Shown in pieces: positions 1 to 13,956 of a stretch of 64,000 nt of DNA; position 1 is the first letter of the stretch, and each line of letters begins with the position of its first letter. The DNA is taken from positions 15,093 to 79,092 of the forward strand of contig JBDHDE010000003.1 of the NCBI GenBank assembly GCA_039591655.1, given 5' to 3'. A program made the translations under genes and the position numbers. Origin of the DNA: Gemmatimonadota bacterium (lineage in GTDB: Bacteria > Gemmatimonadota > Gemmatimonadetes > Gemmatimonadales > GWC2-71-9). The notes under the pieces were generated by a model that ran no database searches, was not told where the DNA came from, and saw only the letters and a list, made by a program, of their open reading frames with translations.

Positions 1-1595
1 CACCCGACCTCGGGGTACACGCGGAACGGCTCGAGTTTATCGGCCTTGATGATCTGGGCGTAGTGGGGCTCCCCGATGCCGATGGGCATGTCGTAGATCA
101 GCTGCATCTCATCGCCATCGATGTCGACGAGCTGGAAGTTCTGGGGCAGCAGCGGCCCGACGTCGTTGAACCGGTCCAGGGACCATTTGTTCATTGCCAC
201 CAGGTACTTGCCATCCGGCGACTTGGTGTCGCCCTCGGCCGCCGCCACGTGACCCACGTTGTAGTGCACACTCAGGTCGTCCACGACCTCGAGCGGGTCG
301 AGGCACCACTTGGTGACCTTGGTGTCGAGGAAGATCGAGGTGTAGGCGCAGCCCTCGTCGTCGAACTGCGTGTGCAATGGGCCCAGGCCGACCTCGAGCT
401 GCCCGTCTATGACCGAGGCGAAGTCGAGGATCGGCACTCCGTACGGATCGTTGCCCGCGAACGAGCCGGCGTCGATCGCCTGCTTCATCTTCTCCCACGA
501 GTAGAGCGTCACGTGCGGATCCAGCTTGCCCGACACGACGATGGTCCCGCCGTCGGGGGTGACGTCGGCCCCGTGGGGGCTCTTGGGCTCGGGCACGAGG
601 TAGAGAAGCCCCTGCTCGATCGCGACGTCGATCGGGATGATCCTGCGCCCGTTGCGGGTGCGGGTCATGCCGCGCGTAGCGGCGACCTCAGCCGCCTTCT
701 CCCAGTTGAGGACGTGGAGGTAGTCCATGTCGTTCTGGGACGCGCCGCTCTCGAATGGAGGATTGCCGTCCTCCACGCCGCCGGTGGCCATCTCGCTGTT
801 GAACGAGTTGAGGAACGCCCAGCCGAACGACGGGCCCTTGCCCGCGTCGGACAGGTCATGCCAGTAGGGCGGCAGCTCGATGGAGAAGCTGGCCGACTCG
901 TCGATGCGCCCGCTCTCCCGGTCGAACTTCCATAGGGTCACGAGACCGCGGTAGTCCTCTTCGTAACGGTCTGTGTCGGCGTAGTCCGTCCACAGGGGGA
1001 TCGAGTACTGCGCCGCCTCGATGACGTACTCTGTGTTGGGAGTGACGAAGGCCCCGCCGTGGTTGGTGCCCATGTTCTCGTTCGTCACGATCTGCTTGGT
1101 CTCGAAGTCACGTAGGTCGATGACGGCGATGCGCGGGTTGGCCTTGTCGTTGATGAACAGGAACTCGCCATCGTAGTCGCCGTCCGTTTCGGACAGCGCA
1201 GGGTGGTGGCTGTCACCCCAGGAGATGTCGTGGCCCGCCATGCCGGCGTTCGCGAGCATCTCCCTGTGCTCCTCGGAGCCGTACCCGAACCCCTGCCACG
1301 GCTCCGGCGTGAAGGCTGCGATGACCTTGAGCAGCCGCATCGACGGGACCCCGATCACCAGGACCTGCCCGGAGTGGCCGCCCGAGCCGAACATGATGTA
1401 CTCGTCGAACTGCCCCGTCGGCTGGTACGTCTTGACGGCGGCGACGACGTCGGCCTCGGTGAGACCACGCTCGCGGGCGATCGCGCCCACGTCGGCGGTC
1501 CCACCCGGGCCGGCGCAGGATCCGAGTCCTGCCACGACGATCACCGCGGCAGCGGCGATGAGGCCGAGCGCCCACTTGAGACCCTTCATGCGCAT
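1..1595 (-). CDS. nosZ: Nitrous-oxide reductase, clade II (Sec-type), 3' end outside window
   Basis: Not in ORF track (no stop in window). Manual translation from ATG 1595: MRMKGLKWALGLIAAAAVIVVAGLGSC...DEYIMFGSGGHSGQVLVIGVPSMRLLK...WGDSHHPALSETDGDYDGEFLFINDKANPRIAVIDL...NHGG...PKSPHG...LGPLHTQFD...YNVGH...GEPHYAQ. CuZ histidine motifs present, no twin-arginine signal. CuA domain would lie beyond position 1. Confidence 0.95.
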   Translation of the reverse strand, partial: MRMKGLKWALGLIAAAAVIVVAGLGSCAGPGGTADVGAIARERGLTEADVVAAVKTYQPTGQFDEYIMFGSGGHSGQVLVIGVPSMRLLKVIAAFTPEPWQGFGYGSEEHREMLANAGMAGHDISWGDSHHPALSETDGDYDGEFLFINDKANPRIAVIDLRDFETKQIVTNENMGTNHGGAFVTPNTEYVIEAAQYSIPLWTDYADTDRYEEDYRGLVTLWKFDRESGRIDESASFSIELPPYWHDLSDAGKGPSFGWAFLNSFNSEMATGGVEDGNPPFESGASQNDMDYLHVLNWEKAAEVAATRGMTRTRNGRRIIPIDVAIEQGLLYLVPEPKSPHGADVTPDGGTIVVSGKLDPHVTLYSWEKMKQAIDAGSFAGNDPYGVPILDFASVIDGQLEVGLGPLHTQFDDEGCAYTSIFLDTKVTKWCLDPLEVVDDLSVHYNVGHVAAAEGDTKSPDGKYLVAMNKWSLDRFNDVGPLLPQNFQLVDIDGDEMQLIYDMPIGIGEPHYAQIIKADKLEPFRVYPEVG

Positions 1596-1712
1596 ACGGT
1601 TACCCCCGGGAACGTAAGTGAATATGGCAGATACGATTAGGTCAGAGCAGCTCAGGCGGGTAGGAGGGCCCGCTCTGCGCTGGCGTCCGAGTTCTTGCCT
1701 GCTTGCCTCAAA

Positions 1713-1729
1713 GATAATGCGATATTATC
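1713..1729. promoter_or_regulatory. Inverted repeat GATAAT-N5-ATTATC, candidate Rrf2 operator
   Basis: AT-rich 6-5-6 palindrome in the divergent nosZ/rrf2 intergenic region of an otherwise GC-rich sequence. Confidence 0.6.
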
Positions 1730-1795
1730 ATGAAGTTGTCGTGAATTTAGCTGTAGGTCCCACGCCCGCAAGCCCCCAGACCTGGAGCCGCACTG

Positions 1796-2239
1796 GTGCT
1801 GTCGGGAACGGCTGAGTACGCCCTCCGGGCGGTGGTGTGCCTTGCGCGGCGGCCGGGGGGCGGCCCGGTGCGGGCCAGCGACCTTGCGGGTGCGGTGGAC
1901 GTGCCGCGGAACTACCTGGGGAAGATCCTCCATGACCTGGTGCGGGCCGGCATCCTCAAGTCGACCAGGGGCAAGCACGGCGGCTTCCAGCTGGCGGTGC
2001 CGGCTCATCAACTGCCGCTGATCAGGGTGGTCGGGCTGTTCGACGAGATCGGTAGGGAGCAGCGGCGCTGTCTGCTCGGGCGGCCCGAGTGCTCTGACGG
2101 GGATCCCTGTCCGGTGCACAGCCGGTGGAAGGAATGCGCCGACCAGGTGCAGCGCTTCTTCGGTGAGACTACGGTGGGTGATGTACTGGACGGGGGTCGT
2201 CTGGGCAGCGGCGACCCGGCCCCGGGGCCCTGTGACTAG
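1796..2239 (+). CDS. Rrf2-family (IscR/NsrR-like) transcriptional regulator, probable Fe-S binding
   Basis: AEYALRA, YLGKIL..L...GIL.S.RG..GGF winged helix; C-terminal CX6CX5CXXH (CLLGRPECSDGDPCPVH). Confidence 0.92.
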   Translation: MLSGTAEYALRAVVCLARRPGGGPVRASDLAGAVDVPRNYLGKILHDLVRAGILKSTRGKHGGFQLAVPAHQLPLIRVVGLFDEIGREQRRCLLGRPECSDGDPCPVHSRWKECADQVQRFFGETTVGDVLDGGRLGSGDPAPGPCD

Positions 2240-2311
2240 CACTGCGCTGGTGGCGGCGGGCTCCTCCCGCCGGGGCCGGAGCGCCGGTTTCTCAGCAGCA
2301 CCAAACAGATG

Positions 2312-2358
2312 GGGCCCGACCCTGGCGCCGTGACAACGGCCAGCGCCGGGGCGGGCCC
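2312..2358. terminator. Long GC-rich hairpin between convergent genes
   Basis: GGGCCCG-A-CCCTGGCGC...GCGCCGGGG-CGGGCCC imperfect inverted repeat; no strong U tract. Confidence 0.35.
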
Positions 2359-2381
2359 TTCATCCTGCCAACGCTGCCGCG

Positions 2382-2819
2382 CTACTGCCGCAAGTACTCG
2401 TACATGGCCCGGGCTTCCTGGCTCGTGACGCCCATGTTCACCATCGGGGTCATGTACTCCGCTAGGAGCTCCTTGGCCGCATCGTCGTTCTGGAGCATCG
2501 AGTCCGGCCGGACGATCATGGCGATGACCCAGTCGAACTGGCGGCGCTCGGTCACCCCCTGGAGGTCGGGACCCGTAAGGCGACCCTCTCCGATGGTATG
2601 GCAGCCCACGCAGCCCTTGGACTGGAAGTAGCCCTCTCCCTCGCTCGCGAGGGCGGCGTCCACCGGCCCGGTGGGAGCCTCCATCGACATCGGCTCGGCA
2701 GCCTCCTCCATCGCCGGCTGCTCGCCCGCCATCGCGGCCTCGTCGGCCGGGGCACCCTCTCCGCCGCAACCGGCGGCCAACACCAACAGCAGCAGAAACG
2801 CGCTATGTCTGACCTTCAT
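2382..2819 (-). CDS. Monoheme cytochrome c, lipoprotein
   Basis: Lipobox LAAGC, CVGCH, GPDLQGV motif, distal Met in MTPMVNM; AGGAG RBS. Confidence 0.92.
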   Translation of the reverse strand: MKVRHSAFLLLLVLAAGCGGEGAPADEAAMAGEQPAMEEAAEPMSMEAPTGPVDAALASEGEGYFQSKGCVGCHTIGEGRLTGPDLQGVTERRQFDWVIAMIVRPDSMLQNDDAAKELLAEYMTPMVNMGVTSQEARAMYEYLRQ

Positions 2820-3031
2820 GGTTGCTTTTCACTCCTAGATGGTTGTGTTGGACTCTCACGATGGTATCGCACGTCCGCGGTGCGCCGACCCTGCGCCACG
2901 CCGGGAGTGCAACACAGGGAAGAAACTATCTGACGGTACCGGAGGAAGGGAGGGGGGCAGGGATGGCCCCGGCCCCCTTGGAGAATCGGCGTATCAGGCA
3001 GTGCCGCAGGCTGCGGCGCAGGCGCTGGCCG

Positions 3032-3418
3032 CTACTCCCGGCGCAGGCTCCAGACGTACGCAGCCACTGCCTCGAGTTGGCTGTCCGACAGCCCGCTGCC
3101 CCCCCTGGGCGGCATGACGGACCCGGTCGACGACTTGTCCGCTGTCACTCCCTTCGTGATGCTGTGCAGGATGCCCTTGAGGGAGCCGTCGCTGTGCTGC
3201 CACTCGTCGTCGGTCAGATCGGCCCCCAGGTTGGGCATGCCCTCGGCGTTCTGTGCGTGGCATACGGCGCAGACCCCCGCGCCTTTGAACAGGGACTCCC
3301 CTTCGGCGATCATCTCCTGGGTGACCCCCTCCGGGAGCTCCTCCTGAGCGAGGACCGCCGGCGCGGCGACGAGCAGCGCTGCCCATGCCAGGGCCAGTCC
3401 ACAGAACCGGTGCCGCAT
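3032..3418 (-). CDS. Periplasmic monoheme cytochrome c
   Basis: Signal peptide ending VLA-QE, CAVCH, distal Met in VMPPRGG; start set at ATG 3418, 6 nt after GGAGGA. Confidence 0.9.
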   Translation of the reverse strand: MRHRFCGLALAWAALLVAAPAVLAQEELPEGVTQEMIAEGESLFKGAGVCAVCHAQNAEGMPNLGADLTDDEWQHSDGSLKGILHSITKGVTADKSSTGSVMPPRGGSGLSDSQLEAVAAYVWSLRRE

Positions 3419-3435
3419 GTGCATTCCTCCAGGTA

Positions 3436-4650
3436 CTAGAAGGCGGTGACGAGACCTACCGTCCACCGTGTCCGGTCCCGCTCGATGTCGTACATGCCTT
3501 CGAAGGCCAGCCGGAAGTTACGCTTGGCAAGCCAGCCGGCGCCAGCGGTAACGGTCTGATACCGCTCGATGTCGGCGAGCTCCCCCAGGCGCACGGTGAG
3601 GATCGGGCGGCTGCAGTCCACGATGTTGTACAGCGCCACGCCGTACCAGCGACTCCCCGGTTTGTGCAGTATGAGTTCAGCCAGGCCGCCGTTGGTGTAG
3701 GCCGTTTCCTCGTTCGGCTCGAACAGTGGGTTGGTGTCCTGCCGGTGGATGTACTGGAGGTTGAGCTCCACGGCCCCCGCCGAGATCGTGGCGTCGGCCC
3801 CTCCCATCCACAACGTATTCGTCACTGTCGGCGCGGTCTCGTCTGGGGCCCCGTCCTGCCGCCCGTAGTACCCCATCGCCCCCAACCGGACGTTCGGTGT
3901 GAGGTCCCGCGTCAGGTGCCCGAAGAGGTTCTTCATCGGATCGTTGTCCAACCGGCGGTTGGGCTCGGCTTCGCCGCGGCCATTGCCGTTGATCACCTCT
4001 GCCGTGAGGGTGAAGCCGGCGGCGTCACCGATGGCCATGATGCCACGGTCGTAGGTCAGGTCCGCCGGCTGGAGCCCAACCCGGGCACGGTAGACCGCGT
4101 AGTCCTGGAACTCGAGCCTGAGCTCCCGCTTGAACATCGGGTCGGAGACCTGGAACTGGCCCACAACGCCGTCGAGGGTCGCACCCCCGATGTCGTTCCA
4201 GTAGATGAAGGCGTCCTCGATGCCCCCGATCTCGCCGCGCTCGAACAGAAAGAAGTAGAAGTAGTACGAGAGGCTGTTCGAGATCGTCCCGCCGGAGAGG
4301 AGCTTGAGGTTGTAGGGACCCTGGAGGTCGGTGGCGACGTTGCCCCCGGTGTACCCCTGGAGGTACGCATCGAGCCGCACGGCCAATGGGACGTCCTTGA
4401 GGAGATGCAGTAGCCGGTCTCCCGTATCGAGCGTGTCGCGCGGTATCTCCTGGGACGCCATGCGGAACCCGTTTCCCGCGAACTCCTCTCCGAATGCCGA
4501 GAGCTTGGGAGCTACCGTGTGGCACAGGCTGCAGCTCACTTTGTATTTGCGCGCGAAGGTGGGGATCGGCTCGCCGCTGGCCACCGCTGCCGCCGGATGC
4601 AGCATCAGGATGAGAGATACGCATGCACCGATACAGAGAATCCGCGTCAT
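3436..4650 (-). CDS. Cyc2-like fused cytochrome c / outer-membrane beta-barrel
   Basis: Signal peptide, then IPTFARKYKVSCSLCHTVAPKLSAFGEEFAGNGF (PxFAR[KQ][YT]-CxxCH-PxL signature); alternating beta-strand pattern; C-terminal Phe (VGLVTAF); AAGGAGG RBS. Confidence 0.8.
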   Translation of the reverse strand: MTRILCIGACVSLILMLHPAAAVASGEPIPTFARKYKVSCSLCHTVAPKLSAFGEEFAGNGFRMASQEIPRDTLDTGDRLLHLLKDVPLAVRLDAYLQGYTGGNVATDLQGPYNLKLLSGGTISNSLSYYFYFFLFERGEIGGIEDAFIYWNDIGGATLDGVVGQFQVSDPMFKRELRLEFQDYAVYRARVGLQPADLTYDRGIMAIGDAAGFTLTAEVINGNGRGEAEPNRRLDNDPMKNLFGHLTRDLTPNVRLGAMGYYGRQDGAPDETAPTVTNTLWMGGADATISAGAVELNLQYIHRQDTNPLFEPNEETAYTNGGLAELILHKPGSRWYGVALYNIVDCSRPILTVRLGELADIERYQTVTAGAGWLAKRNFRLAFEGMYDIERDRTRWTVGLVTAF

Positions 4651-4760
4651 GGGGCCCTCCTTGGAAGTGACCTATCGGGCGGGTATTCAGCGAAGCAGGC
4701 CATCACCCCGTTGGGGGGATGGGTCTTGCCATCAATGTTGGCCGTGTTGTGAGCGCGCGG

Positions 4761-4982
4761 CTAGTGGTGTTGCGGATGCGTCCGGTGGGAGCGGGTGTTG
4801 AGCCGGAACAGCTCGTACAGCGGGCAGTGGTGCGTCAGGGCCGTGGCCGCCAACACGAGGGCCAGCAACGCCGCCGCCAGAGACAGGATCACCTGCTCGA
4901 TGAGGACCACGGCAACGACGAGGGACACCACCGCCAGGCATCCCCGAATACACCCATCCACCATTCCGACGTTGGCTTGCAT
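4761..4982 (-). CDS. DUF2892/YgaP-like small membrane protein
   Basis: NVGMVD..IR start, two hydrophobic helices, CPLY.LF..NT motif. Confidence 0.8.
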   Translation of the reverse strand: MQANVGMVDGCIRGCLAVVSLVVAVVLIEQVILSLAAALLALVLAATALTHHCPLYELFRLNTRSHRTHPQHH

Positions 4983-5101
4983 CGGCCCTCGCCCGCTGCC
5001 TCCACCCGGGGCAAGATCGGCCGCCCTCTATTAAGGCAGCCGTAACCCCGCGTGAAGGACCGATGGGCTGTTTGTGAAGGTGCCTTTGGGGGGGGGCGGT
5101 G

Positions 5102-6502
5102 CTAGGCGGTCGGGGGGGTGCGGGGCAGCTCGAGGGCAACGGCAAGCCCCCCTTGGATGCTCCGTCCTGCCTCGATCCGGCCGCCGTGCGCCTCCACGAT
5201 GGCGGCTGCAAGCGTGAGTCCCAGACCTGCGGCCGCGCCGGCGCGGGTGCGTGCGTGGTCACTCCGATAGAACCGCTCGAAAAGGCGCGGCAGCACTTCA
5301 TTGGGCAGCCCCGGCCCATCGTCCTCCACCGTTATCCTCACATTTGCGGAATCGGCGGTCACACCGGCACACACCCGCGTGCCCTCGGGTGTGTGCTTAA
5401 TGCCGTTGTCGAGCAGTTGATCGATCACCAGAGTCAGCATCTTCGCGTCAACGGAGGCCGTGGCGTCGCCGGCTCCCTGTGCTGCCGTGAGAGCGATCTT
5501 TCTGCCCTCGGCGCGTGCCTGGGCCTTGCGCACTGCTCGGGCGACCAGGTCCCTCACGTCACGAGTGATCCGCTCGGGCTTGAGCGTGGCGGAGTCGAGG
5601 CGCGCCAACATGACCAGGGACTCGCTGAGAGACGCCAGGTGGTCGACCTCCTCCAATACACTGGAGAGTACGGCACGGTACTCGTCGGGGCGCCGCTCGC
5701 CCCGTAGGGTGACCTCCAGCTCGCCGCGCATCGCGGTGAGTGGTGTGCGGAGATCGTGGCCTGCGTCGGCGATCATGCGGCGCTGAGTCTCGAACGCCTG
5801 GTCGAGGCGCTCCAGCATGCCGTTGAGCACCTTGACCAGTCCCGCGAACTCCTGCACATCGGCGTGCTCGGTGATGCGCTGGCCCACCGCGCCGGGCCTG
5901 ATTCCCTCTGCCTGTTGGGTGATCTCCTCCACCGGTGTCACGCTGGAGCCGGCGAGCCAACCCGCTCCCAGGGCGCTTGCCGCGGTCCCCAGGAGGACGG
6001 TCCCCAGCAAGAGGAGCAGCACCCGGCGATTGGCCAAGTGCAGCGGGCGCAGTGATGCCGCTACCTGGACCACTACCTGGTCCGCGCCACCCCTCAGAGG
6101 TACCGCCCCGTAGTACGAGCGAACGGCTTCGGGCTCCCACTCCTGGGTCGTCCACACCTGATCGCCGTCCCTCGCCCGCTCGAAGCTGTCCGTGTCCAGG
6201 GGAAGGCCGCTGGCCAGCGGCGTGTTGGTCGCCAGGACGGTGTGGTCCTCGGCTCGCACCACCACGAAACGGTTCACCGCGTCGACGAACCCTTCGAGAT
6301 CCGACGGCTCCGCGTGCACCGCGATGGGAAAGCCGGCACCGATAACGGCGAACTCGAGCTGCGCCACGGCAGCGAGCCCGTGGTCCAGCTCCTCACGTAG
6401 GATTCGCTGGGCGCCGAGGTATGCCCACAGCGCGATAAACAGGAGCGCAATGAAGATGGTGAGGGAGAACCGCACGGCGAGCGTGCGGCGCAGGGAGTAC
6501 AT
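5102..6502 (-). CDS. Membrane sensor histidine kinase (2 TM, HAMP, HisKA, HATPase), heavy-metal-sensor-like
   Basis: ADAGHDLRTPL H-box, LLDNGIKHT N-box, EDDGPG, FERFYR, GLGL; 1-nt overlap with upstream regulator. Confidence 0.93.
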   Translation of the reverse strand: MYSLRRTLAVRFSLTIFIALLFIALWAYLGAQRILREELDHGLAAVAQLEFAVIGAGFPIAVHAEPSDLEGFVDAVNRFVVVRAEDHTVLATNTPLASGLPLDTDSFERARDGDQVWTTQEWEPEAVRSYYGAVPLRGGADQVVVQVAASLRPLHLANRRVLLLLLGTVLLGTAASALGAGWLAGSSVTPVEEITQQAEGIRPGAVGQRITEHADVQEFAGLVKVLNGMLERLDQAFETQRRMIADAGHDLRTPLTAMRGELEVTLRGERRPDEYRAVLSSVLEEVDHLASLSESLVMLARLDSATLKPERITRDVRDLVARAVRKAQARAEGRKIALTAAQGAGDATASVDAKMLTLVIDQLLDNGIKHTPEGTRVCAGVTADSANVRITVEDDGPGLPNEVLPRLFERFYRSDHARTRAGAAAGLGLTLAAAIVEAHGGRIEAGRSIQGGLAVALELPRTPPTA

Positions 6503-7185
6503 CAGTCTGTGTGGCCGTTCTTCTTGAGGCAGAATCCGACGCCACGAACCGTCTGGATCAGTCCGTCGAATCCCGCCTCACGCAGCTTGCGCCGCAGGTT
6601 TCCAACGTGGACATCGACGACGTTGCTCTCCGGATCGAAGTGCATGTCCCACACCTTCTCGAGCAACTCCGTGCGGCGCACCACGTCTTCGGGGTGCAAC
6701 ATGAAGTGCTCGAGGAGCTGGAACTCCCGCGGCGTGAGATCGAGGAGCTCCTCGCCGGCCCAGGCTTTGTGCTTCAGCCGGTCCAGCTCCAGCGGTCCGT
6801 AGGACAGCCGATCGAGCCGTGCTGCACCGCCCCGGCGCACCAGCGCGCGCAGCCGCGCCAACAGTTCGTCGAACTTGAACGGCTTGGTGAGATAGTCGTC
6901 GGCGCCGGCATCCAGGCCGCGCACCACGTCCTCGGTCGCGTCCCGAGCAGTGAGCATGAGAATGGGCGTGTTCCGCCCCTCGCGGCGCAACTCAGAGGCC
7001 ACCTGTAGGCCGTTCTTCTTGGGGAGCATCAGGTCGAGCAGGATTGCGTCGTAGTCGTTGATGTGGGCGAACACGGTGGCCTCTTCGCCATCCTTGGCGA
7101 CGTCCACTGCGTAGCCCTCCTCCCGAAGGCCCATCTCGATGAAACCAGCGACCTTGCGGTCGTCTTCGACTACGAGGATCCGCAT
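6502..7185 (-). CDS. OmpR/CusR-like response regulator
   Basis: MRILVVEDD, LLDLMLP, LTARD, GADDYLTKPF, SNVVDVHV..LRRKL, IQTVRGVG. Confidence 0.95.
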   Translation of the reverse strand: MRILVVEDDRKVAGFIEMGLREEGYAVDVAKDGEEATVFAHINDYDAILLDLMLPKKNGLQVASELRREGRNTPILMLTARDATEDVVRGLDAGADDYLTKPFKFDELLARLRALVRRGGAARLDRLSYGPLELDRLKHKAWAGEELLDLTPREFQLLEHFMLHPEDVVRRTELLEKVWDMHFDPESNVVDVHVGNLRRKLREAGFDGLIQTVRGVGFCLKKNGHTD

Positions 7186-7222
7186 TGTGGACAACCCTAG
7201 CCGTGACGGGCTATATGGTTGT

Positions 7223-7237
7223 TTAATCGAAGGTTAA
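7223..7237 (-). promoter_or_regulatory. TTAA-N7-TTAA direct repeat, candidate OmpR-family binding site
   Basis: 11-bp-period repeat just upstream of the response regulator; similar TTAC-N7-TTAA at 5031-5045. Confidence 0.45.
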
Positions 7238-7244
7238 CGCCTCT

Positions 7245-8486
7245 TTATGATGCCGCGACCTGGCGCGGAACCCGCAGGATGAAGCGCGCTCCCTTGCCGA
7301 CCTGGCTCTCCACGTTGAGCTCGCCGCCCAGAAGCCGCGCCAGCTTGCGCGAGAGCGCCAGACCCAAGCCCGTCCCCCGCTCGGTCTGGTGTCCGGCCCG
7401 CTCGAACGCCTCGAAGATCACCGCCTGCTGCTCGGAGGCGATGCCCTCACCCCGATCCACCACGTCGAACCGGAGGGTACCGTCCGTGACGCGTAGCTCG
7501 ACGTCGATCGCCTCGTCCGGTGGGCTGTGGCGCACCGCGTTGGTGAGCAGGTTGATGAGAATCTGGCGCACGCGCTGCGGGTCGGTGCGGCAGGTGACGG
7601 CCTCGTCGGGTCCGGTGAGCGTGATCTTGACACCGCGACGGTCGGCGGCGGGCTCCACGGTGGACACCGACTCTCTTACGATGCTCCACGCGTCGGAGTC
7701 CTTGATCATCGGCTCGAGTTTGTCGGCCTCTAGTCGGGAGAGATCCAACAGGTCCTCGAGCAGCGTGAGCGCACGCTCGGCTGATTCCTGCACCTCCAGT
7801 GCGGAGCGCGGAGTATCGGGCGCGGTCTTGCGGATCCACAGCTCGGTCCAGCCGTGGACGGCGGTGAGCGCGTTGCGCAGCTCGTGGTTAGTCATGGCGA
7901 AGAAGCGCTCCCGCGAGTGGTGCAGCTGCCGCAGCTGCTTCAGCAGGCCCTCCCGCTCGGAGAAGAATCGCGCGTTCTCCACCGCGACCGAGGCGTGGCT
8001 GGCCAGCATGACCGCGAAGGCTTCGTCCTCCGGCGTGAACTCCGAGCCGCCTTCCTTTTCCGCGAGGTAGAGGTTCCCGATCGTTTCGTCCCGACCGATG
8101 ATGGGGACGCCGAGGAAGGACCGCATGTGGGGATGGTGCTCGGGGAAGCCGTACGCGCGCGGGTCGCGGGTCACGTCCCTCACCCGCAGGGGCTTGGGCT
8201 CCCGGATCAGCGCGCCGAGCACGCCCCTGCCCCGGGGCAGTTCGCCGATCTTGCCGTGGGCCTCCTGGGGGAGCCCGCTGGTCACGAAGGTCTCCAGCGC
8301 CGTGCCGCTCTCGTCGAGGATGCCGAGGGCCGCATACTGCGCGCCGATCACGAAACGGGCCGACTCCACCACCTCCTGGAGCACGCGGTCCAGTTCGTGT
8401 TCGGCGGTGATGCGGATGGTGGCCTGGGAGAGGCGCTCGACCCGCTGCCAGATCTCGTGGTTGTCCGCCCGGGAGGTTGGCGACAT
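7245..8486 (-). CDS. Cytoplasmic GAF-domain sensor histidine kinase (DosS/DevS-like GAF)
   Basis: GAF with P.GRGVLG.LI...GFPEHHPHMRSFLGVPI; NHELRNAL H-box, LLTNAVRH, DRGEGI, GTGLGL; no TM segment; start at ATG 8486 inferred. Confidence 0.9.
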   Translation of the reverse strand: MSPTSRADNHEIWQRVERLSQATIRITAEHELDRVLQEVVESARFVIGAQYAALGILDESGTALETFVTSGLPQEAHGKIGELPRGRGVLGALIREPKPLRVRDVTRDPRAYGFPEHHPHMRSFLGVPIIGRDETIGNLYLAEKEGGSEFTPEDEAFAVMLASHASVAVENARFFSEREGLLKQLRQLHHSRERFFAMTNHELRNALTAVHGWTELWIRKTAPDTPRSALEVQESAERALTLLEDLLDLSRLEADKLEPMIKDSDAWSIVRESVSTVEPAADRRGVKITLTGPDEAVTCRTDPQRVRQILINLLTNAVRHSPPDEAIDVELRVTDGTLRFDVVDRGEGIASEQQAVIFEAFERAGHQTERGTGLGLALSRKLARLLGGELNVESQVGKGARFILRVPRQVAAS

Positions 8487-8626
8487 ACGGGTGGAAGCTA
8501 TGTAAGGCCGGGCCGGGGTGGAAGGGTGGCCGGCGGCCCCGTCCCGTGCGGCAGCCCTCCCGCCGGGGGTGTCGCACCGGCGCCAGGGACGATAATCTCC
8601 CCGTAACCCCAACCGCGCGATCGGCC

Positions 8627-9358
8627 GTGGATCCCACGCTGACCGTCTTGCTGTACTCGTCCCTGGCCGCGGCAGCGGCCGGGCTCGGGATTGCACCGCT
8701 GATGGTTAGCAAGCGCCTCGCCCTGGCCCGGATTGGCTGGGCCAACGCCTTGGCGGCGGGGCTCATGCTGGGCGCCGCCTACGCCCTGATGGTGGTGGGG
8801 ATCCAGCCGCTCCCCGTGACTGCGGCCGCAGGCTCTCTCCTGGGCATCGGCTTCGTGTACTGGACTCACGCGGTGTCGGGCACGGCGGACATGGACCTCA
8901 ACCGCCTGGAAGAGACCAGCGTCGATTACGGCTACAAGGTCCTGTTGGTCACCGGGCACCACGCCGCCGCCGAGGGGATCGCCATCGGCGCGGCGTTCGT
9001 GGTGAGCGTTCCGTTCGGCATCTTCATGGCCCTGGCCATCGCTGTGCACAACGTTCCCGAGGCCACGGTGCTGTGCTCCATCCTCACGGGCCGCGGCGTG
9101 CGGCTGAGGGATGCCGCCGGGCTCGCGGTGGCGACCAATGTGAGCCAGATCCTCCTTGCAATCGTCACGTTCGCGATCGTGACGGCCGCGCCCGGAGTGC
9201 TTCCCTGGGCGGTGGGCTTTGCCGTGGGAGCGCTGGTCTACCTGGTGATGGCCGAGCTGCTGCCGGAGTGCTACCGGCAGGCGGGACCCACGAGCATTGC
9301 CCTCGTGACGATCGTTGCGATGGGGATCGTGGTTCTGTTGAGCAACCGGGGACTTTGA
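8627..9358 (+). CDS. ZIP (ZupT/GufA) family metal transporter 1
   Basis: ALAAGLML, HAAAEG, AIAVHNVPEA, AELLPE; GTG start inferred. Confidence 0.85.
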   Translation: MDPTLTVLLYSSLAAAAAGLGIAPLMVSKRLALARIGWANALAAGLMLGAAYALMVVGIQPLPVTAAAGSLLGIGFVYWTHAVSGTADMDLNRLEETSVDYGYKVLLVTGHHAAAEGIAIGAAFVVSVPFGIFMALAIAVHNVPEATVLCSILTGRGVRLRDAAGLAVATNVSQILLAIVTFAIVTAAPGVLPWAVGFAVGALVYLVMAELLPECYRQAGPTSIALVTIVAMGIVVLLSNRGL

Positions 9359-9360
9359 CG

Positions 9361-10098
9361 GTGCCGGTCCTGGACCCGGTGCTCCTCGTCTTTCTCTATG
9401 GGCTCTTCACGGCCCTCGCCACGGGACTCGGGGCGCTCCCCTTTGCCTTCGTCCGCTCGGTCTCGGCACGGGCCGTGGCGTACGCCAATGCCATCGCCGC
9501 GGGACTGATGCTGGGGGCGAGCTTCGGGCTCGTCGCCGAGGGCACGCAATACGGAGCGTGGCAGACACTCATCGGCGCCGTGCTCGGCGTGCTGTTCATC
9601 CTGGGGACGCAGCAGTACCTCAAGACGCGCCAGATCGAGTTCGGGAGGGTACGGGGCGGCGGAGCGCGTCGCATGCTCCTCATCATGGTGGTGATGACGG
9701 TGCACTCCTTTGCGGAGGGCGTGGCGGTCGGGGTGGCTTTCGGCGGGAGCATGACCCTCGCCGTCGCCATCGTGTTGGCTATCGCCGTGCACAACATTCC
9801 GGAGGGGTTGGCGATCAGCGCGGTGTTCCGCCCGCGCGGCGTCTCGGTGGCTGGGTGCGCCGGGTGGAGCATCGTCTCATCGCTGCCGCAGCCGTTGATG
9901 GCGGTGCCGGCCTACCTGTTGGTCGAGACGTTCACGTCCGTGCTTCCTTACGGCATCGGGTTCGCCGCGGGCGCCATGGTGTTCATGGTGTTCGTGGAGC
10001 TACTACCGGAGGCGTTCGAGGTGGGCCGCAAGCCCCACGTTGCGCTCCTGACCTCCGCCACCCTCGTGGCGATGGTCGTGTTCCAGCAGTACCTGTAG
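9361..10098 (+). CDS. ZIP (ZupT/GufA) family metal transporter 2
   Basis: ATGLGALP, HSFAEGVAVG, AIAVHNIPEG, SSLPQP, FAAGAM, ELLPEA; GTG start inferred. Confidence 0.9.
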   Translation: MPVLDPVLLVFLYGLFTALATGLGALPFAFVRSVSARAVAYANAIAAGLMLGASFGLVAEGTQYGAWQTLIGAVLGVLFILGTQQYLKTRQIEFGRVRGGGARRMLLIMVVMTVHSFAEGVAVGVAFGGSMTLAVAIVLAIAVHNIPEGLAISAVFRPRGVSVAGCAGWSIVSSLPQPLMAVPAYLLVETFTSVLPYGIGFAAGAMVFMVFVELLPEAFEVGRKPHVALLTSATLVAMVVFQQYL

Positions 10099-10253: not shown

Positions 10254-11876
10254 TTAGAACGGCTTGTACCCCGGCGAGCCGAAGGTCTCCATTGCCAGGT
10301 GATCGGCCAGCGGGTACGCGTAGGCGATCGCCACCAGGATCACGGCGACCACGACCCAAGCCCAGATGCGATCGAACACCACCAGCTTGGTGGGCTCTCC
10401 TTCCAACGGCTCCGCAAACTCGAGCGTCGGCTGCTCGGCCTTCGGACCGGCCAACACCGTGCCTAGCATGCTGAGCAGGAAGAACGACGCGGAGACGAAC
10501 AGCAGCACGCCTCCTGCGGCGGATATGAGCGTGAGTCCCTCCCACTGTGTGGCGGCAAGACTGCCGCCGTAGCTCGTCTCGTAGACACGCCGTGGCATGC
10601 CCATTATGCCCGTGATGTGGTTCGAAATGGAGAACAGCAGCATCCCGACGAACCATAGGTACGGCTGCCACTTGGCAAGCAGACCGAGCTCCAGATCCCG
10701 ACCTACCAGCTTCGGTACCAGCCAGTACGCAACACCCATGAAGGTGAGCGCCACTGCGGAGCCCACGGTGAGATGGAAATGTCCCTGGATCCAGGCCGTG
10801 TTGTGCACCACCGCATTCATGCCGTACGCCGCGTTGATGGCGCCGCCGAAGCCGCCAACGGCGAACAAGATCATGCTGAGGAGCACCGCCGCCACCATGG
10901 GGTTGTTCCACGGCAGTTTGGCGATCCAGTCGAACAGTCCCCTGGCGCCGCGCATGCGGCCCGCGACCTCCAAGGACGCGGTCACGGTGAACGCCGTGAC
11001 GAAGCTGGGGAAGAGGATCGCGAACGTGGTGACGGTGTGTGCCAGCTTCCATCCGGCGGAGATCCCGGGGTCCATGAACTGGTGATGGAATCCCACAGGC
11101 GTGGACAGGATGATGAACAGGGCGAACACCATCCGCGCCAGCGGATCGCTGAACAGCTTCCCGCCGGCCTCCCGCGGCACCACGGAGTACCACACGACGT
11201 AGGCGGGAATGAGCCAGAAGTAGACCAGCGGGTGGCCGAAGAACCAGAACAGCATGCGGGCCAGGAGCGGGTCTACCGTCTCCTTGAGCCCCAGCGACCA
11301 CGGGATGAGCTGGAACAGCATCTCCGAGGCCACACCCACCGTCGCGAGGTACCACACGATGATCGTGGTCAGGATACCGTGCACCGCCAGCGGAACCGGC
11401 GTGCCGGGGTTGTCCTTCTTCCACGCGAAGTAGCTGGCGATGATCACCGCGCCCCACACCCAGGAGCCGACGACCAGTAGCGTGGCGCCGATGTAGAACG
11501 CCGAGTGTGCCTGGAGCGGTGGGTAGAAGGTGTAAAGGACAGTGGCTTTGCCCCACAGGATCGCCCACGCAACCATGGCCGTTCCGACGGCGGCGATCCA
11601 GAACCCGGCCCATGCCACGCGTGGCCATTTGAGCGGCCGCTCGAGAGCGCGGGTCGTGAACGCGATCCCGAGACCCATGATGAAGAACGTGGTGAACACG
11701 ATCGCCATCAGGACGCCGTGGCCGGTCACCGAGAGGTAGTACATCTTGGCCGAGCGCCAGGGGAGGTCGAGGCTGGCGCGCGACAGGGCCTGCATCAGAG
11801 CCATGAACGTCGCGATGCCGAACGCGACCACCGCGACGCCGATGTTTGCCGTGGCGAGACGTCGATTGTGGATCAT
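10254..11876 (-). CDS. cbaA: ba3-type (family B) heme-copper oxidase subunit I
   Basis: VTGHGVLM, LYTFYPPL, WFFGHPLVYFW (cross-link Tyr retained), GFHHQF, VHNTAWIQGHFHLT, GMPRR. Confidence 0.93.
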   Translation of the reverse strand: MIHNRRLATANIGVAVVAFGIATFMALMQALSRASLDLPWRSAKMYYLSVTGHGVLMAIVFTTFFIMGLGIAFTTRALERPLKWPRVAWAGFWIAAVGTAMVAWAILWGKATVLYTFYPPLQAHSAFYIGATLLVVGSWVWGAVIIASYFAWKKDNPGTPVPLAVHGILTTIIVWYLATVGVASEMLFQLIPWSLGLKETVDPLLARMLFWFFGHPLVYFWLIPAYVVWYSVVPREAGGKLFSDPLARMVFALFIILSTPVGFHHQFMDPGISAGWKLAHTVTTFAILFPSFVTAFTVTASLEVAGRMRGARGLFDWIAKLPWNNPMVAAVLLSMILFAVGGFGGAINAAYGMNAVVHNTAWIQGHFHLTVGSAVALTFMGVAYWLVPKLVGRDLELGLLAKWQPYLWFVGMLLFSISNHITGIMGMPRRVYETSYGGSLAATQWEGLTLISAAGGVLLFVSASFFLLSMLGTVLAGPKAEQPTLEFAEPLEGEPTKLVVFDRIWAWVVVAVILVAIAYAYPLADHLAMETFGSPGYKPF

Positions 11877-12349
11877 ACGCCCCCCTCCACGATCAACGTT
11901 GCGCCCATGTTGTGATGACCGAGGCCGCAGTACTCGTTACACGTGATCAGGTACTCGCCCGGTTCGTCGAACGTCATGGTGAACTGGCTGACGTAGCCCG
12001 GGATCACCATCGTGTTGCCGTTCGTCCCTACGATCTGAAAGCCGTGGACGACGTCGGCGCTCGCGATCCGGAACGTGACCGGTGTGTTGGCGGGCACCCT
12101 GATCTCGTTCGGCTGGAATGCGAACATCATGGCGAGCATCGTCACTTCGACGCTGCCGTCTGGATTGGTCGTCACCCCGCGCTGGGCGAAGCGTGCGTCG
12201 GACCAGACGTTGCGGGGGTCGACGGTCTCTACGTGGCTGGGCGGCAGCCGGCCCTGGGACACGGTGGCGAATGCGATCGCGCCGAGGAACACCACGATGA
12301 TCGCGCCTGCGCCCCACATCCAGATCCGCTCGTATAGATGCACATGCAT
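11873..12349 (-). CDS. cbaB: ba3-type oxidase subunit II (CuA)
   Basis: Single N-terminal TM, DVVHGF and CNEYCGLGHHNM CuA ligands; 4-nt overlap with subunit I. Confidence 0.93.
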   Translation of the reverse strand: MHVHLYERIWMWGAGAIIVVFLGAIAFATVSQGRLPPSHVETVDPRNVWSDARFAQRGVTTNPDGSVEVTMLAMMFAFQPNEIRVPANTPVTFRIASADVVHGFQIVGTNGNTMVIPGYVSQFTMTFDEPGEYLITCNEYCGLGHHNMGATLIVEGGV

Positions 12350-12355
12350 GGGCCG

Positions 12356-12496
12356 TTACCTCATCACCGCGCCGCGCGGGAGGTAGATGAACAGGAAGAA
12401 GGCAAACCACCCGATGACGAACAGCGCGCCGTACAGCCCGACGAGGGCCAACGTGCCACGCGGGTGCTTGCCGACCTCGGAGTGCTGATCGCTCAT
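12356..12496 (-). CDS. cbaD: ba3-type oxidase subunit IIa (46 aa)
   Basis: Tail of a longer track ORF: MSDQHSEVGKHPRGTLALVGLYGALFVIGWFAFFLFIYLPRG; P.GTL..V...W...F...RG pattern; AAGGAG RBS; position upstream of subunit II. Confidence 0.8.
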   Translation of the reverse strand: MSDQHSEVGKHPRGTLALVGLYGALFVIGWFAFFLFIYLPRGAVMR

Positions 12497-12537: not shown

Positions 12538-12927
12538 CTAAAGCCTGCCGGTTGCGAGCGCGCGCACGATGTCGCTCTGGGCGATCACGCCGACTAGCTC
12601 GCCGTCTTGCTCCACGAACAGGCGGTGCACGTCCAGGGAGAGCATCTCCTGAGCCGCCTGCTTGACGTCCTGGTCGGGGCTGATGGTCTGCGGTGGCGAC
12701 GTCATGATGTCGCGCACGAGGATCTCGCCGAAGCGCCGCTCGCCCTCCCCCTCGGCCGCGCTCTGCAGGATATCGCTGGAGGAGAGCACCCCCACGAGAC
12801 CCCCGCGTCGATTCACGACCGGCACGCCGTGTACGTGAGCATCGGCCAAGGAGACGATGGCCTCCGCCACCGACACGTCCTGGTTCACGATGGCGAGTTC
12901 CGTCTGCATCAGCTCCGCCACTCTCAT
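12538..12927 (-). CDS. Tandem CBS-domain protein
   Basis: MRVAELM...PVV...LVGVLS..DI; VRDIMT.PP.TI...LVGVIAQSDIV. Confidence 0.9.
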   Translation of the reverse strand: MRVAELMQTELAIVNQDVSVAEAIVSLADAHVHGVPVVNRRGGLVGVLSSSDILQSAAEGEGERRFGEILVRDIMTSPPQTISPDQDVKQAAQEMLSLDVHRLFVEQDGELVGVIAQSDIVRALATGRL

Positions 12928-13020
12928 TGCGACCTCTGGCGCTGGAAACGCCGGTACGAAGTCTGGAGCGGTACCGGTCCGGCGCTAGGCGCCGCCGCAT
13001 CCGCTGTTCAGAAGGAGGAT

Positions 13021-13074
13021 AGTCTAACGCGTCGGTACGGCTTCGTCACGCTCGTCTTGGTTGACGGGGTCAAC
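13021..13074 (-). promoter_or_regulatory. Candidate sigma70 promoter of CBS-cba operon with upstream palindrome
   Basis: GTGACG-17-TAGACT (13049-13021) and GTTGAC-N3-GTCAAC at 13060-13074. Confidence 0.5.
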
Positions 13075-13089
13075 GATCACGCAGTGGGA

Positions 13090-13956
13090 TTAGCGGCGCG
13101 GGCCGACAGGGACCACCAGGACCGATGCTGGGAGCCGGTTGAGAAGGCGCTCGGTCGTGCTTCCGAGCAGCACGCGATCCACCCACCCCTTACCGTGGGA
13201 TCCCACCACAACCATGTCGGCACCCCAGGCCTGGGCCTCGTCGCAAATGACGCGGCTCGGCGTGCCGCACTGCACTTCCTGCGCCACGGACATTCCGTCC
13301 AGGGCGCGCGCGACAATGCGACTGAACTCTCGCTCCGCAGTCTGCAGGTGCTCCTGTTCGTCCAGCTGGACCGCGACGTCGGGAATGGGTGGAAACGGCT
13401 CGACGGCGTGGAGTGCCCGTAGCTCGGCTGCGAACAGCGCCGCGAGATGCGCGGCCATCTCGAGCGTCGGGTCGGCAGCGTCGGAGAGGTCCGCCGCGAC
13501 CAGCACCCGACCGACGTCGGGTCGCGTCGAGGCCGTCACGAGGACCGGCACGTCGATGGTGCGCACGGCATGGTGCACCGTGCTCCCCCCGAACCATCGG
13601 GCGGGCGCGGAGTGGCGTTTCCCGCCGAGCACCAGGAGCCCGGCCCCGTAGCCGCTGACGGCCGCCGCTAGCTCCCAAGCGACATTGCCGCGCCGCACCT
13701 CGAGGTGATCCGGGGTCTCCGGCGGCGCGTTCTCCTGCAGCGCGGCCACCACCTGCTCCCGGGCGACGGAGGCAGCCTTGGCGGCGACCACGCTCTCGTC
13801 CACCGCGGCGGGCACGCTGGGCAGGTGCCGCGTCACGTGCACCAGGTGGCAGGGGACCCCCGCCGCCTCGGCCGTGCGCCAAGCCATCGCTGCCGCCAGG
13901 GCGCCCTCGGGCGAGGCGTCCACTCCTGCGACCACCGCTTTCCACTGCATCGTCAT
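13090..13956 (-). CDS. Tandem-domain universal stress protein
   Basis: VVAGVDAS...LLVLG...FGGST; VLVAADLS...VVVGSHG.G...LLGSTTERLL; start at MTMQW inferred. Confidence 0.9.
   Translation of the reverse strand: MTMQWKAVVAGVDASPEGALAAAMAWRTAEAAGVPCHLVHVTRHLPSVPAAVDESVVAAKAASVAREQVVAALQENAPPETPDHLEVRRGNVAWELAAAVSGYGAGLLVLGGKRHSAPARWFGGSTVHHAVRTIDVPVLVTASTRPDVGRVLVAADLSDAADPTLEMAAHLAALFAAELRALHAVEPFPPIPDVAVQLDEQEHLQTAEREFSRIVARALDGMSVAQEVQCGTPSRVICDEAQAWGADMVVVGSHGKGWVDRVLLGSTTERLLNRLPASVLVVPVGPRR

Follow-up and report, generated by a model that had tools for sequence, protein, structure and literature searches.

The window analysed here, a stretch of 64,000 nucleotides on contig JBDHDE010000003.1 of a Gemmatimonadota bacterium (source genome of 67% G+C and 95% completeness), holds the gene of a Cyc2-family protein, a monoheme cytochrome fused to a porin, close to nosZ, which encodes a clade II nitrous-oxide (N2O) reductase. 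This porin is a further member of a known family and lies beside an ordinary clade II nos operon, and among the relatives of this bacterium the porin and nos have been gained or lost independently of each other. With somewhat better than even confidence, sequence and gene neighbourhood point to the porin as an optional electron inlet of a low-oxygen cassette, feeding a shared periplasmic cytochrome pool. An earlier, sequence-only reading of the same DNA had joined the porin, two cytochromes c, and NosZ into a single candidate conduit from an extracellular donor to N2O.

In the criteria that Keffer et al. give for Cyc2 (10.1101/228056), these proteins hold a PxFAR[Q/K][T/Y] motif, one CxxCH, and at least 365 residues, and their barrel is predicted to have 16 strands and to resemble OprO/OprP most. 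The porin of the window has 404 residues, with PTFARKY at residues 30–36, CSLCH at 40–44, PKL at 48–50, and a terminal phenylalanine; these motifs had been read correctly from the letters. Its N-terminus looks signal-like by eye (basic start, hydrophobic core, and small residues ahead of the PxFAR motif), which together with the terminal phenylalanine would suit an outer-membrane protein. The AlphaFold2 model (mean pLDDT 90.4, pTM 0.86) comprises a small helical heme domain followed, from residue 90 on, by 16 barrel strands. Its top match is OprP (2o4v), both with Foldseek (E 5.6e-14) and with VIA-align (Z 25.2, root-mean-square deviation 3.1, 301 aligned residues), other 16-stranded porins being close behind. 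Because of the PxFAR motif, the one CxxCH, the length, and the predicted 16-stranded barrel closest to OprP, the protein is a Cyc2-family member by motif and predicted fold, and the earlier assignment to this family stands.

Across an alignment of 98 homologues, N-terminal fragments included, conservation reaches 90% or more at P30, R34, C40, C43, H44, and P48; CxxCH is present in 94 of the 98 sequences, a close form of the PxFAR[Q/K][T/Y]-like motif in 72, and the terminal phenylalanine in 86. Neither the porin nor the 98 family members match any family in Pfam and NCBIfam, and no solved structure in the PDB was matched by sequence or profile. The matches in the ESM Atlas are unnamed clusters, one of them with Porin_O_P in 20% of its members, and a plasmid search with the porin gave three weak N-terminal matches from Ralstonia, one being a 446-residue PxFAR/CxxCH protein whose profile alignment covers the heme domain only. 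The named close homologues belong to Gemmatimonadota, and the nearest relatives outside the phylum, from Ignavibacteria, Zixibacteria, and Aminicenantes, are 41–48% identical.

Loci near this one in the porin tree (built quickly with IQ-TREE, its branches supported by SH-aLRT alone, from 96 of 97 unique loci, L050 having no full ORF) share a fixed cassette composed of a GAF histidine kinase, a response regulator, a membrane kinase, a YgaP-like protein, the porin, and a soluble cytochrome. A lipoprotein cytochrome often comes after it, and genes for universal stress proteins (USP), CBS proteins, ZIP transporters, and a ba3 oxidase lie upstream (Table 1). In this cassette a DosT-like sensor would stand at the head, and the porin and the two cytochrome genes at the end. 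This GAF kinase, in which one GAF domain precedes HisKA, finds its best PDB matches in 2vzw (E 3e-40) and the GAF domain of DevS/DosS (E 2e-36), and keeps the residues aligned with DosS His149 and Tyr171, which are the proximal ligand and the ligand-discriminating residue of that protein (PMC4082495). The kinase is likely a sensor of O2, NO, or CO and, to judge from its sequence, works like DosT, although it is no member of DosRST.

The GAF kinase occurs in 60 of the 151 sampled genomes of the order, paired with the highly conserved OmpR-type regulator (75–89% identity across cassette loci). Its neighbours vary and include USP, CBS, Hsp20, MgtC-DUF4010, RtcB, a ba3 or cbb3 oxidase, and nos. 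This island apparently represents a widespread low-oxygen regulatory island that is undescribed so far. When genes no more than 10 kb apart are counted as linked, nosZ lies near the kinase in 12 of the 32 genomes with both, 10 of these 12 having no Cyc2-like match near nosZ, whilst the ba3 oxidase does so in 13 of 27 and the porin in 7 of 14. Since low-oxygen respiratory modules gather around the sensor, the proximity of porin and nosZ is explained without a dedicated chain, and the same clustering would account for the location of nos here.

The linkage itself was surveyed by mapping 22 marker proteins with tblastn on 100 loci (the own locus, 19 from the 151-genome sample, and the 80 best of 337 from a species collection), which after removal of three duplicates comprise 65 Gemmatimonadota and 32 other-lineage loci; a metagenome set holds 73 further loci, mostly of a distant subfamily paired with a pentaheme cytochrome. 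nosZ stands beside the porin at 3 of the 65 Gemmatimonadota loci (all 3 among the 44 whose downstream flank reaches 6 kb or more), at none of the 32 other loci (18 with such a flank), and at none of the 73 metagenome loci (28 with such a flank). At the genome level, a close porin orthologue is present in 20 of the 151 genomes, nosZ in 62, and both in 12, and they are linked in 2 of these 12, some links being concealed by fragmented assemblies; a distant Cyc2-like match coexists with nosZ in 21 genomes and is linked to it in none. A conserved cyc2–cytochrome–nosZ linkage is thus not supported, and the lack of such conservation, which the sequence-only reading had itself named as a refutation, largely applies.

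These counts bear on the alternative of a dedicated conduit, in which Fe(II) or another outside donor would reduce Cyc2 and the electrons would reach NosZ by way of both cytochromes, the soluble one and the lipoprotein, the genes being kept together for this purpose. In its favour, the full order of porin, soluble cytochrome, lipoprotein cytochrome, and nosZ is seen at three loci (the own locus, L034, and L054) that lie apart from one another in the porin tree, at three places, and G056 is probably a further linked locus hidden by contig breaks. The absence of narG and nirK matches above cut-off in the genome fits an N2O scavenger, and the lipoprotein cytochrome accompanies the porin cassette even where nos is not beside it (L051–L053 and L158), so it may link both. 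Moreover, nosZ occurs in 12 of the 20 genomes with a close porin orthologue versus 50 of the 131 without. However, the nos label is unclustered on the porin tree (3 changes versus a shuffled mean of 2.9). The test of co-occurrence has a p of 0.087 among kin that are not independent, and nosZ is unmatched in the other 8 of the 20 genomes, some of which are incomplete. The NosZ proteins of the three linked loci belong to one group, 76–85% identical to the NosZ here. With the losses described below and an rrf2 gene interrupting the run, such a conduit appears quite improbable.

Evidence for separate histories comes from close relatives. The closest orthologues with long flanks (L051–L053, 62–67% identical, and L158) hold the cassette as far as the lipoprotein cytochrome but lack nos there, and at L051–L053 feoB or tryptophanase-like genes come directly after the cassette, whereas here those lie past the nos operon. 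Five genomes with such close orthologues were searched for nosZ, and two have it, one beside the cassette and one on another contig with its own rrf2; it was not found in the genomes of L051, L053, and L055, and in that of L052 it lies away from the cassette. The genome of G087, a member of the same genus with 97% completeness, retains the cassette island together with rrf2 and nos, but a profile search found no porin match genome-wide. Neither pattern supports a conserved cyc2–cytochrome–nosZ unit.

The missing porin has left traces. Between the YgaP-like gene and the soluble cytochrome, C-terminal remnants of the porin were detected in G125 (E 6e-12), G107 (E 4.5e-5), and G121 (E 9e-4), and a weak one, of the last residues, in G087 (E 1.1), where the 17-nt spacing to the soluble cytochrome is the same as here; the E-values were computed among 3,507 segments from seven loci. 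The position of these remnants upstream of the soluble cytochrome indicates that the porin once belonged to the cassette and was then lost, while the cytochromes (and, in G087, nos) stayed. Such a loss probably happened more than once.

The nos genes show signs of a control of their own. With the 531 residues that lie inside the window, NosZ scores 667 bits on its best match, TIGR04246 (cut-off 625), confirming its place in clade II. Past the window the operon continues with genes for a membrane protein, nosD (PF05048), an ATP-binding cassette (ABC) ATPase, an ABC permease, and hemerythrin; the hemerythrin-domain gene closes the operon (L001 10268-10819, left of the window) and lies beside nos in L133 too, and no nosL was seen in the operon here. 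The rrf2 gene and nosZ stand head-to-head, and on its other side rrf2 meets the lipoprotein cytochrome gene tail-to-tail. The earlier description of four genes on one strand with rrf2 intervening holds for their common minus strand and for the place of rrf2, but not for an unbroken run, as rrf2 lies on the opposite strand and interrupts it. Divergence of rrf2 from nos is seen at 9 of 17 hand-picked nosZ loci and at one more locus, and rrf2 belongs with the nos module.

Between nosZ and rrf2 lies an AT-rich 6-5-6 palindrome, which has no second copy in the genome when up to one mismatch is allowed, and an AT-rich core of similar kind precedes rrf2 at 5 of 10 other rrf2 loci, as judged by eye; nothing like this palindrome was found ahead of the porin. 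It is likely a candidate Rrf2 operator for the divergent nos and rrf2 promoters in the clade II nos of this order. As rrf2 is on the opposite strand and this unique palindrome separates it from the divergent nosZ, the nos genes likely make up a transcription unit apart, with its own regulator. A scan of positions 1500–9000 for promoters and terminators was uninformative (one promoter-like site versus 0.6 expected, and two terminator-like sites versus 2.5), and GC-rich hairpins, taken without a shuffle control, are present in the intergenic gaps.

Both small cytochromes are, by their sequences, class I monohemes with a methionine in the distal-ligand region, and cytochromes of this type are usually high-potential. 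The soluble one starts at position 3418, with a GGAGG site ahead of it, and 17 nt past the porin stop, the spacing reported earlier; it shows weak matches to CcoP domains. It is likely the first acceptor of electrons from the porin; a complex prediction for both proteins scored 0.01, which gives no answer and weighs neither way. In some cassettes a heme-less Porin_O_P-like gene comes after the soluble cytochrome (L034 11619-12656 and L076 11635-12741), and one of these cassettes carries a second copy of that cytochrome. The lipoprotein cytochrome, already recognized as a lipoprotein in the sequence-only reading and carrying an LAAGC lipobox, has its closest structure in 3cp5 (E 4e-17 over residues 36–145), which we take to be a cytochrome c of Rhodothermus marinus. 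By a hand count it lies within 1 kb of nosZ in 18 of the 22 genomes with both, and it is the usual nos-adjacent cytochrome of this order.

In the proposed optional inlet, the DosT-like kinase would likely switch the cassette on under low oxygen. An outside reductant, probably dissolved Fe(II), would reduce the heme, placed where the barrel opens to the periplasm, and electrons would move from there to the soluble cytochrome and into the shared periplasmic pool. Under low oxygen, this pool would likely serve the neighbouring ba3-type oxidase first, and NosZ would probably draw on it through the lipoprotein cytochrome only incidentally. The normal source of electrons for nos would be quinol, by way of alternative complex III and the same cytochrome, with no need for the porin. 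The porin would then be an optional accessory that provides supplementary energy for a heterotroph. We infer the low-oxygen regulation, the inward electron flow, the electron partners, and the attachment of heme to the porin, the latter from a CcmF-like gene in the genome. Some flow from Fe(II) to N2O is possible, although the gene history gives no sign of it as a purpose.

On the other hand, several observations weigh against the porin as a low-oxygen inlet. The OmpR-type regulator and the second, membrane-bound kinase suggest that the signal may be other than oxygen, and the nearby ZIP and feoB genes would fit a metal signal. Near the porin, the GAF kinase is found at 16 of the 65 Gemmatimonadota loci and an oxidase at 7, and any of kinase, USP, CBS, Hsp20, MgtC-DUF4010, or oxidase at 28, leaving 37 with no such low-oxygen or stress marker. 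Of 60 Gemmatimonadota loci flanked by 1 kb of sequence or more, 33 have the soluble cytochrome directly 3' of the porin, and the other 27 lack it downstream. Both counts make the sensor cassette one porin context among several. At the genome level the oxidase is linked to the porin in 3 of the 11 genomes with both, barely above nosZ, and at L034 and L054, where rrf2 is absent from the run, the porin is followed on its own strand by the lipoprotein cytochrome and nosZ, although with an opposite-strand ORF between the two cytochromes. No methionine or histidine other than that of CxxCH is conserved in more than about 57% of the 98 homologues, so that a conserved distal ligand is lacking. Finally, the porin is placed at family level only; Cluster 3 would be a guess from the DeMMO taxa of PMC8478452, a source that gives no protein-by-protein assignment.

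Some of these observations would suit a protein that carries no bulk electron flow, such as a heme-gated or redox-sensing porin, or one acting in protective or metal-handling Fe(II) oxidation, within a metal or stress cassette. The frequent absence of a cytochrome neighbour and the lack of a conserved distal ligand would be expected from such a protein, the porin has been lost repeatedly while both cytochromes stay, and metal genes are at hand, namely ZIP in the cassette and feoB/DtxR-FeoA past nos here and directly after the cytochromes in L051 and L052. Against this explanation, the CxxCH and PxFAR motifs are nearly invariant, and both porin subfamilies have a periplasmic cytochrome, belonging to one or the other of two unrelated types, as their most frequent neighbour, as expected under selection for electron transfer, which leaves it a rather unlikely explanation.

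The second of these types is a pentaheme cytochrome, located directly upstream of the porin at 29 of the 32 loci outside Gemmatimonadota and at 51 of the 73 metagenome loci. This sister subfamily includes loci from Ignavibacteria, Zixibacteria, Aminicenantes, and Calditrichota (with the pentaheme pairing nearly universal across L095–L130 and L165–L225). The pairing would also agree with outward flow, where under low oxygen the porin would export electrons from periplasmic cytochromes to Fe(III) chelates or humics as an extra emergency sink, the remaining members of the cassette being electron sinks as well. FeGenie files Cluster 3 Cyc2 proteins, found in iron-reducing Geobacter, under probable oxidation and possible reduction (PMC7005843), and potentials vary in the family, one Cluster 1 Cyc2 having a midpoint of -130 mV (PMC13692758). 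Nevertheless, every biochemically tested Cyc2 in the cited studies oxidises iron (10.1101/228056, PMC13692758), separate multiheme and beta-barrel loci of this genome could handle export, and both partner cytochromes, being of the high-potential type, would be better acceptors than donors. Outward flow is thus judged hardly probable.

The most far-reaching proposal, that in one Gemmatimonadota lineage a heme O2 sensor induces Cyc2 and two cytochromes, through which Fe(II) or reduced humics feed clade II NosZ directly without oxygen, the ba3 oxidase being the microoxic branch, is unlikely. If a flow from Fe(II) to NosZ were nevertheless real, it would represent a biological N2O sink running on an inorganic donor in iron-rich, low-oxygen sediments and soils, where enzymes of a non-denitrifier would consume N2O at the expense of Fe(II), and a four-protein chain to rebuild. 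Fe(II) produces N2O abiotically, and such a sink would be the opposite of that process. With the porin as an optional inlet, cyc2, a common marker of iron oxidation, would be an optional and repeatedly lost accessory in probable heterotrophs, and the deletion scars offer natural pairs of close relatives with and without it for probing this branch of Cyc2.

Among the other genes of the window, the neighbouring oxidase, already named as ba3-type in the sequence-only reading, has the HPxVY cross-link tyrosine and the HH ligands, from which motifs we take it to be of the B family. An NO reductase of the B-derived families was rejected because this tyrosine is present. Just upstream of subunit II, a minus-strand ORF of 46 residues with a single helix (12356-12496) is probably the small subunit IIa, judging from its position and size. 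Two small membrane proteins with no Pfam match recur near the porin at other loci (L046 10603-11474 and L057 14606-15494).

Elsewhere, the genome encodes a six-gene cluster for alternative complex III and an A-type oxidase. A RuBisCO-like protein of 373 residues (L233 6191-7309) matches PF00016 weakly, and at 75 bits was rejected as a sign of carbon fixation, RuBisCO being the fixation pathway covered by the search. The genome also holds a secreted protein of 506 residues, possibly a beta-barrel, next to cytochromes with 12 and 4 hemes, as well as a large multiheme/NrfD/molybdopterin/Rieske locus (L232 920-4039 and L231; G000 C19, C10); both are possible separate systems for extracellular electron transfer.

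Table 1. Position, strand, and basis of assignment of the features discussed (porin remnants are numbered within their own loci).
Feature	Position	Strand	Basis
nosZ, clade II (Sec-dependent) nitrous-oxide reductase, 5' part (653-residue gene running off the window)	1..1595	-	TIGR04246, PF18764
AT-rich 6-5-6 palindrome between nosZ and rrf2	1713..1729		sole genome match at up to one mismatch
Rrf2-family regulator	1796..2239	+	PF02082, TIGR00738
Lipoprotein monoheme cytochrome c, 3cp5 type	2382..2819	-	LAAGC lipobox, PF00034
Soluble periplasmic monoheme cytochrome c, CcoP/cytochrome c6-like domain	3032..3418	-	PF13442, PF00034
Cyc2-family fused monoheme cytochrome and 16-stranded porin	3436..4650	-	motifs, AlphaFold2 model, OprP fold match
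Small YgaP-like membrane protein, regular cassette member	4761..4982	-	PF11127, cassette maps
Membrane sensor histidine kinase, 2CSK_N-HAMP-HisKA-HATPase	5102..6502	-	domain matches
OmpR-type response regulator	6502..7185	-	PF00072 and PF00486 (Trans_reg_C)
Cytoplasmic GAF histidine kinase, DosT/DosS-like heme GAF	7245..8486	-	PDB matches
Two ZIP-family metal transporter genes	8627..10098	+	PF02535
B-family (ba3-type) heme-copper oxygen reductase, subunits I and II	10254..12349	-	PF00115, PF00116
CBS-pair protein and tandem universal stress protein	12538..13956	-	PF00571, PF00582
Porin C-terminal remnants in four relatives	L132 ~8570-8700; L226 ending 12763; L138 ending 10756; L131 ending 10250		

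Regarding earlier work, Cyc2 homologues are known from metagenome-assembled genomes (MAGs) of Gemmatimonadota, with the direction of electron flow left open, and iron oxidation coupled to NosZ has been proposed in such MAGs, for sulfocyanin (PMC11316326). The function of Cyc2 is described as most uncertain outside Cluster 1 (10.1101/228056), and G. aurantiaca reduces N2O heterotrophically (PMC9530729). The literature covered, mostly at the level of titles and abstracts and outside subscription papers, holds no description of a cyc2–nosZ linkage or of Cyc2 in a Dos/DosT-like cassette, although supplements (the figshare Cyc2 alignments and the MAG annotation tables of PMC11316326) could hold these proteins. 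What is new here is the identity of the DosT-like sensor, the deletion scars of the porin, and the separate candidate operator of nos.

Compared with characterized systems, the porin shares its motif and single CxxCH with Cyc2PV-1 from Mariprofundus and Cyc2TAG1 from Ghiorsea (both Cluster 1), the Cyc2 of Acidithiobacillus ferrooxidans (Cluster 2), and the Cyt572 of Leptospirillum (Cluster 3). With known Cyc2 proteins it also has in common a length above 365 residues and a predicted 16-stranded, OprO/OprP-like barrel, and its N-terminus, signal-like by eye, may correspond to their signal peptide; with known Cyc2 systems it shares a periplasmic cytochrome c and an oxygen reductase as neighbours. 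Unlike them, it is known from its gene alone, it belongs to a probably heterotrophic member of Gemmatimonadota that is no known iron oxidiser, and its gene has a DosT-like sensor, stress genes, and an oxidase of the B family for company.

The GAF kinase resembles mycobacterial DosS and DosT in the proximal histidine and distal tyrosine of its GAF domain, and in its USP, CBS, Hsp20, and nitroreductase-like neighbours, which we presume to be typical members of the Dos regulon. However, it combines a single GAF with a HisKA-type kinase, where DosS and DosT hold two GAFs. DosR is a NarL-type regulator, whereas the regulator here is of the OmpR type, and a second, membrane-bound kinase is added. 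Regarding the lipoprotein cytochrome, the system of R. marinus, where alternative complex III passes electrons to a soluble cytochrome c (PMC5928083), has its counterpart in the complex encoded in this genome, although, unlike 3cp5, the protein here holds a lipobox and a flexible linker rich in alanine, glutamate, and proline.

Similarly, the nos operon follows the clade II type of Bacteroidota and Gemmatimonadota, with a Sec-dependent NosZ, a membrane protein after nosZ, nosD, and ABC transporter genes. Its upstream c-type cytochrome and Rrf2 regulator are likewise familiar, as both kinds of genes have been described for clade II nos clusters (PMC6264515). The operon departs from the typical arrangement in the position of rrf2 between the cytochrome and nosZ, seen here and in G087, and in the Cyc2 gene nearby.

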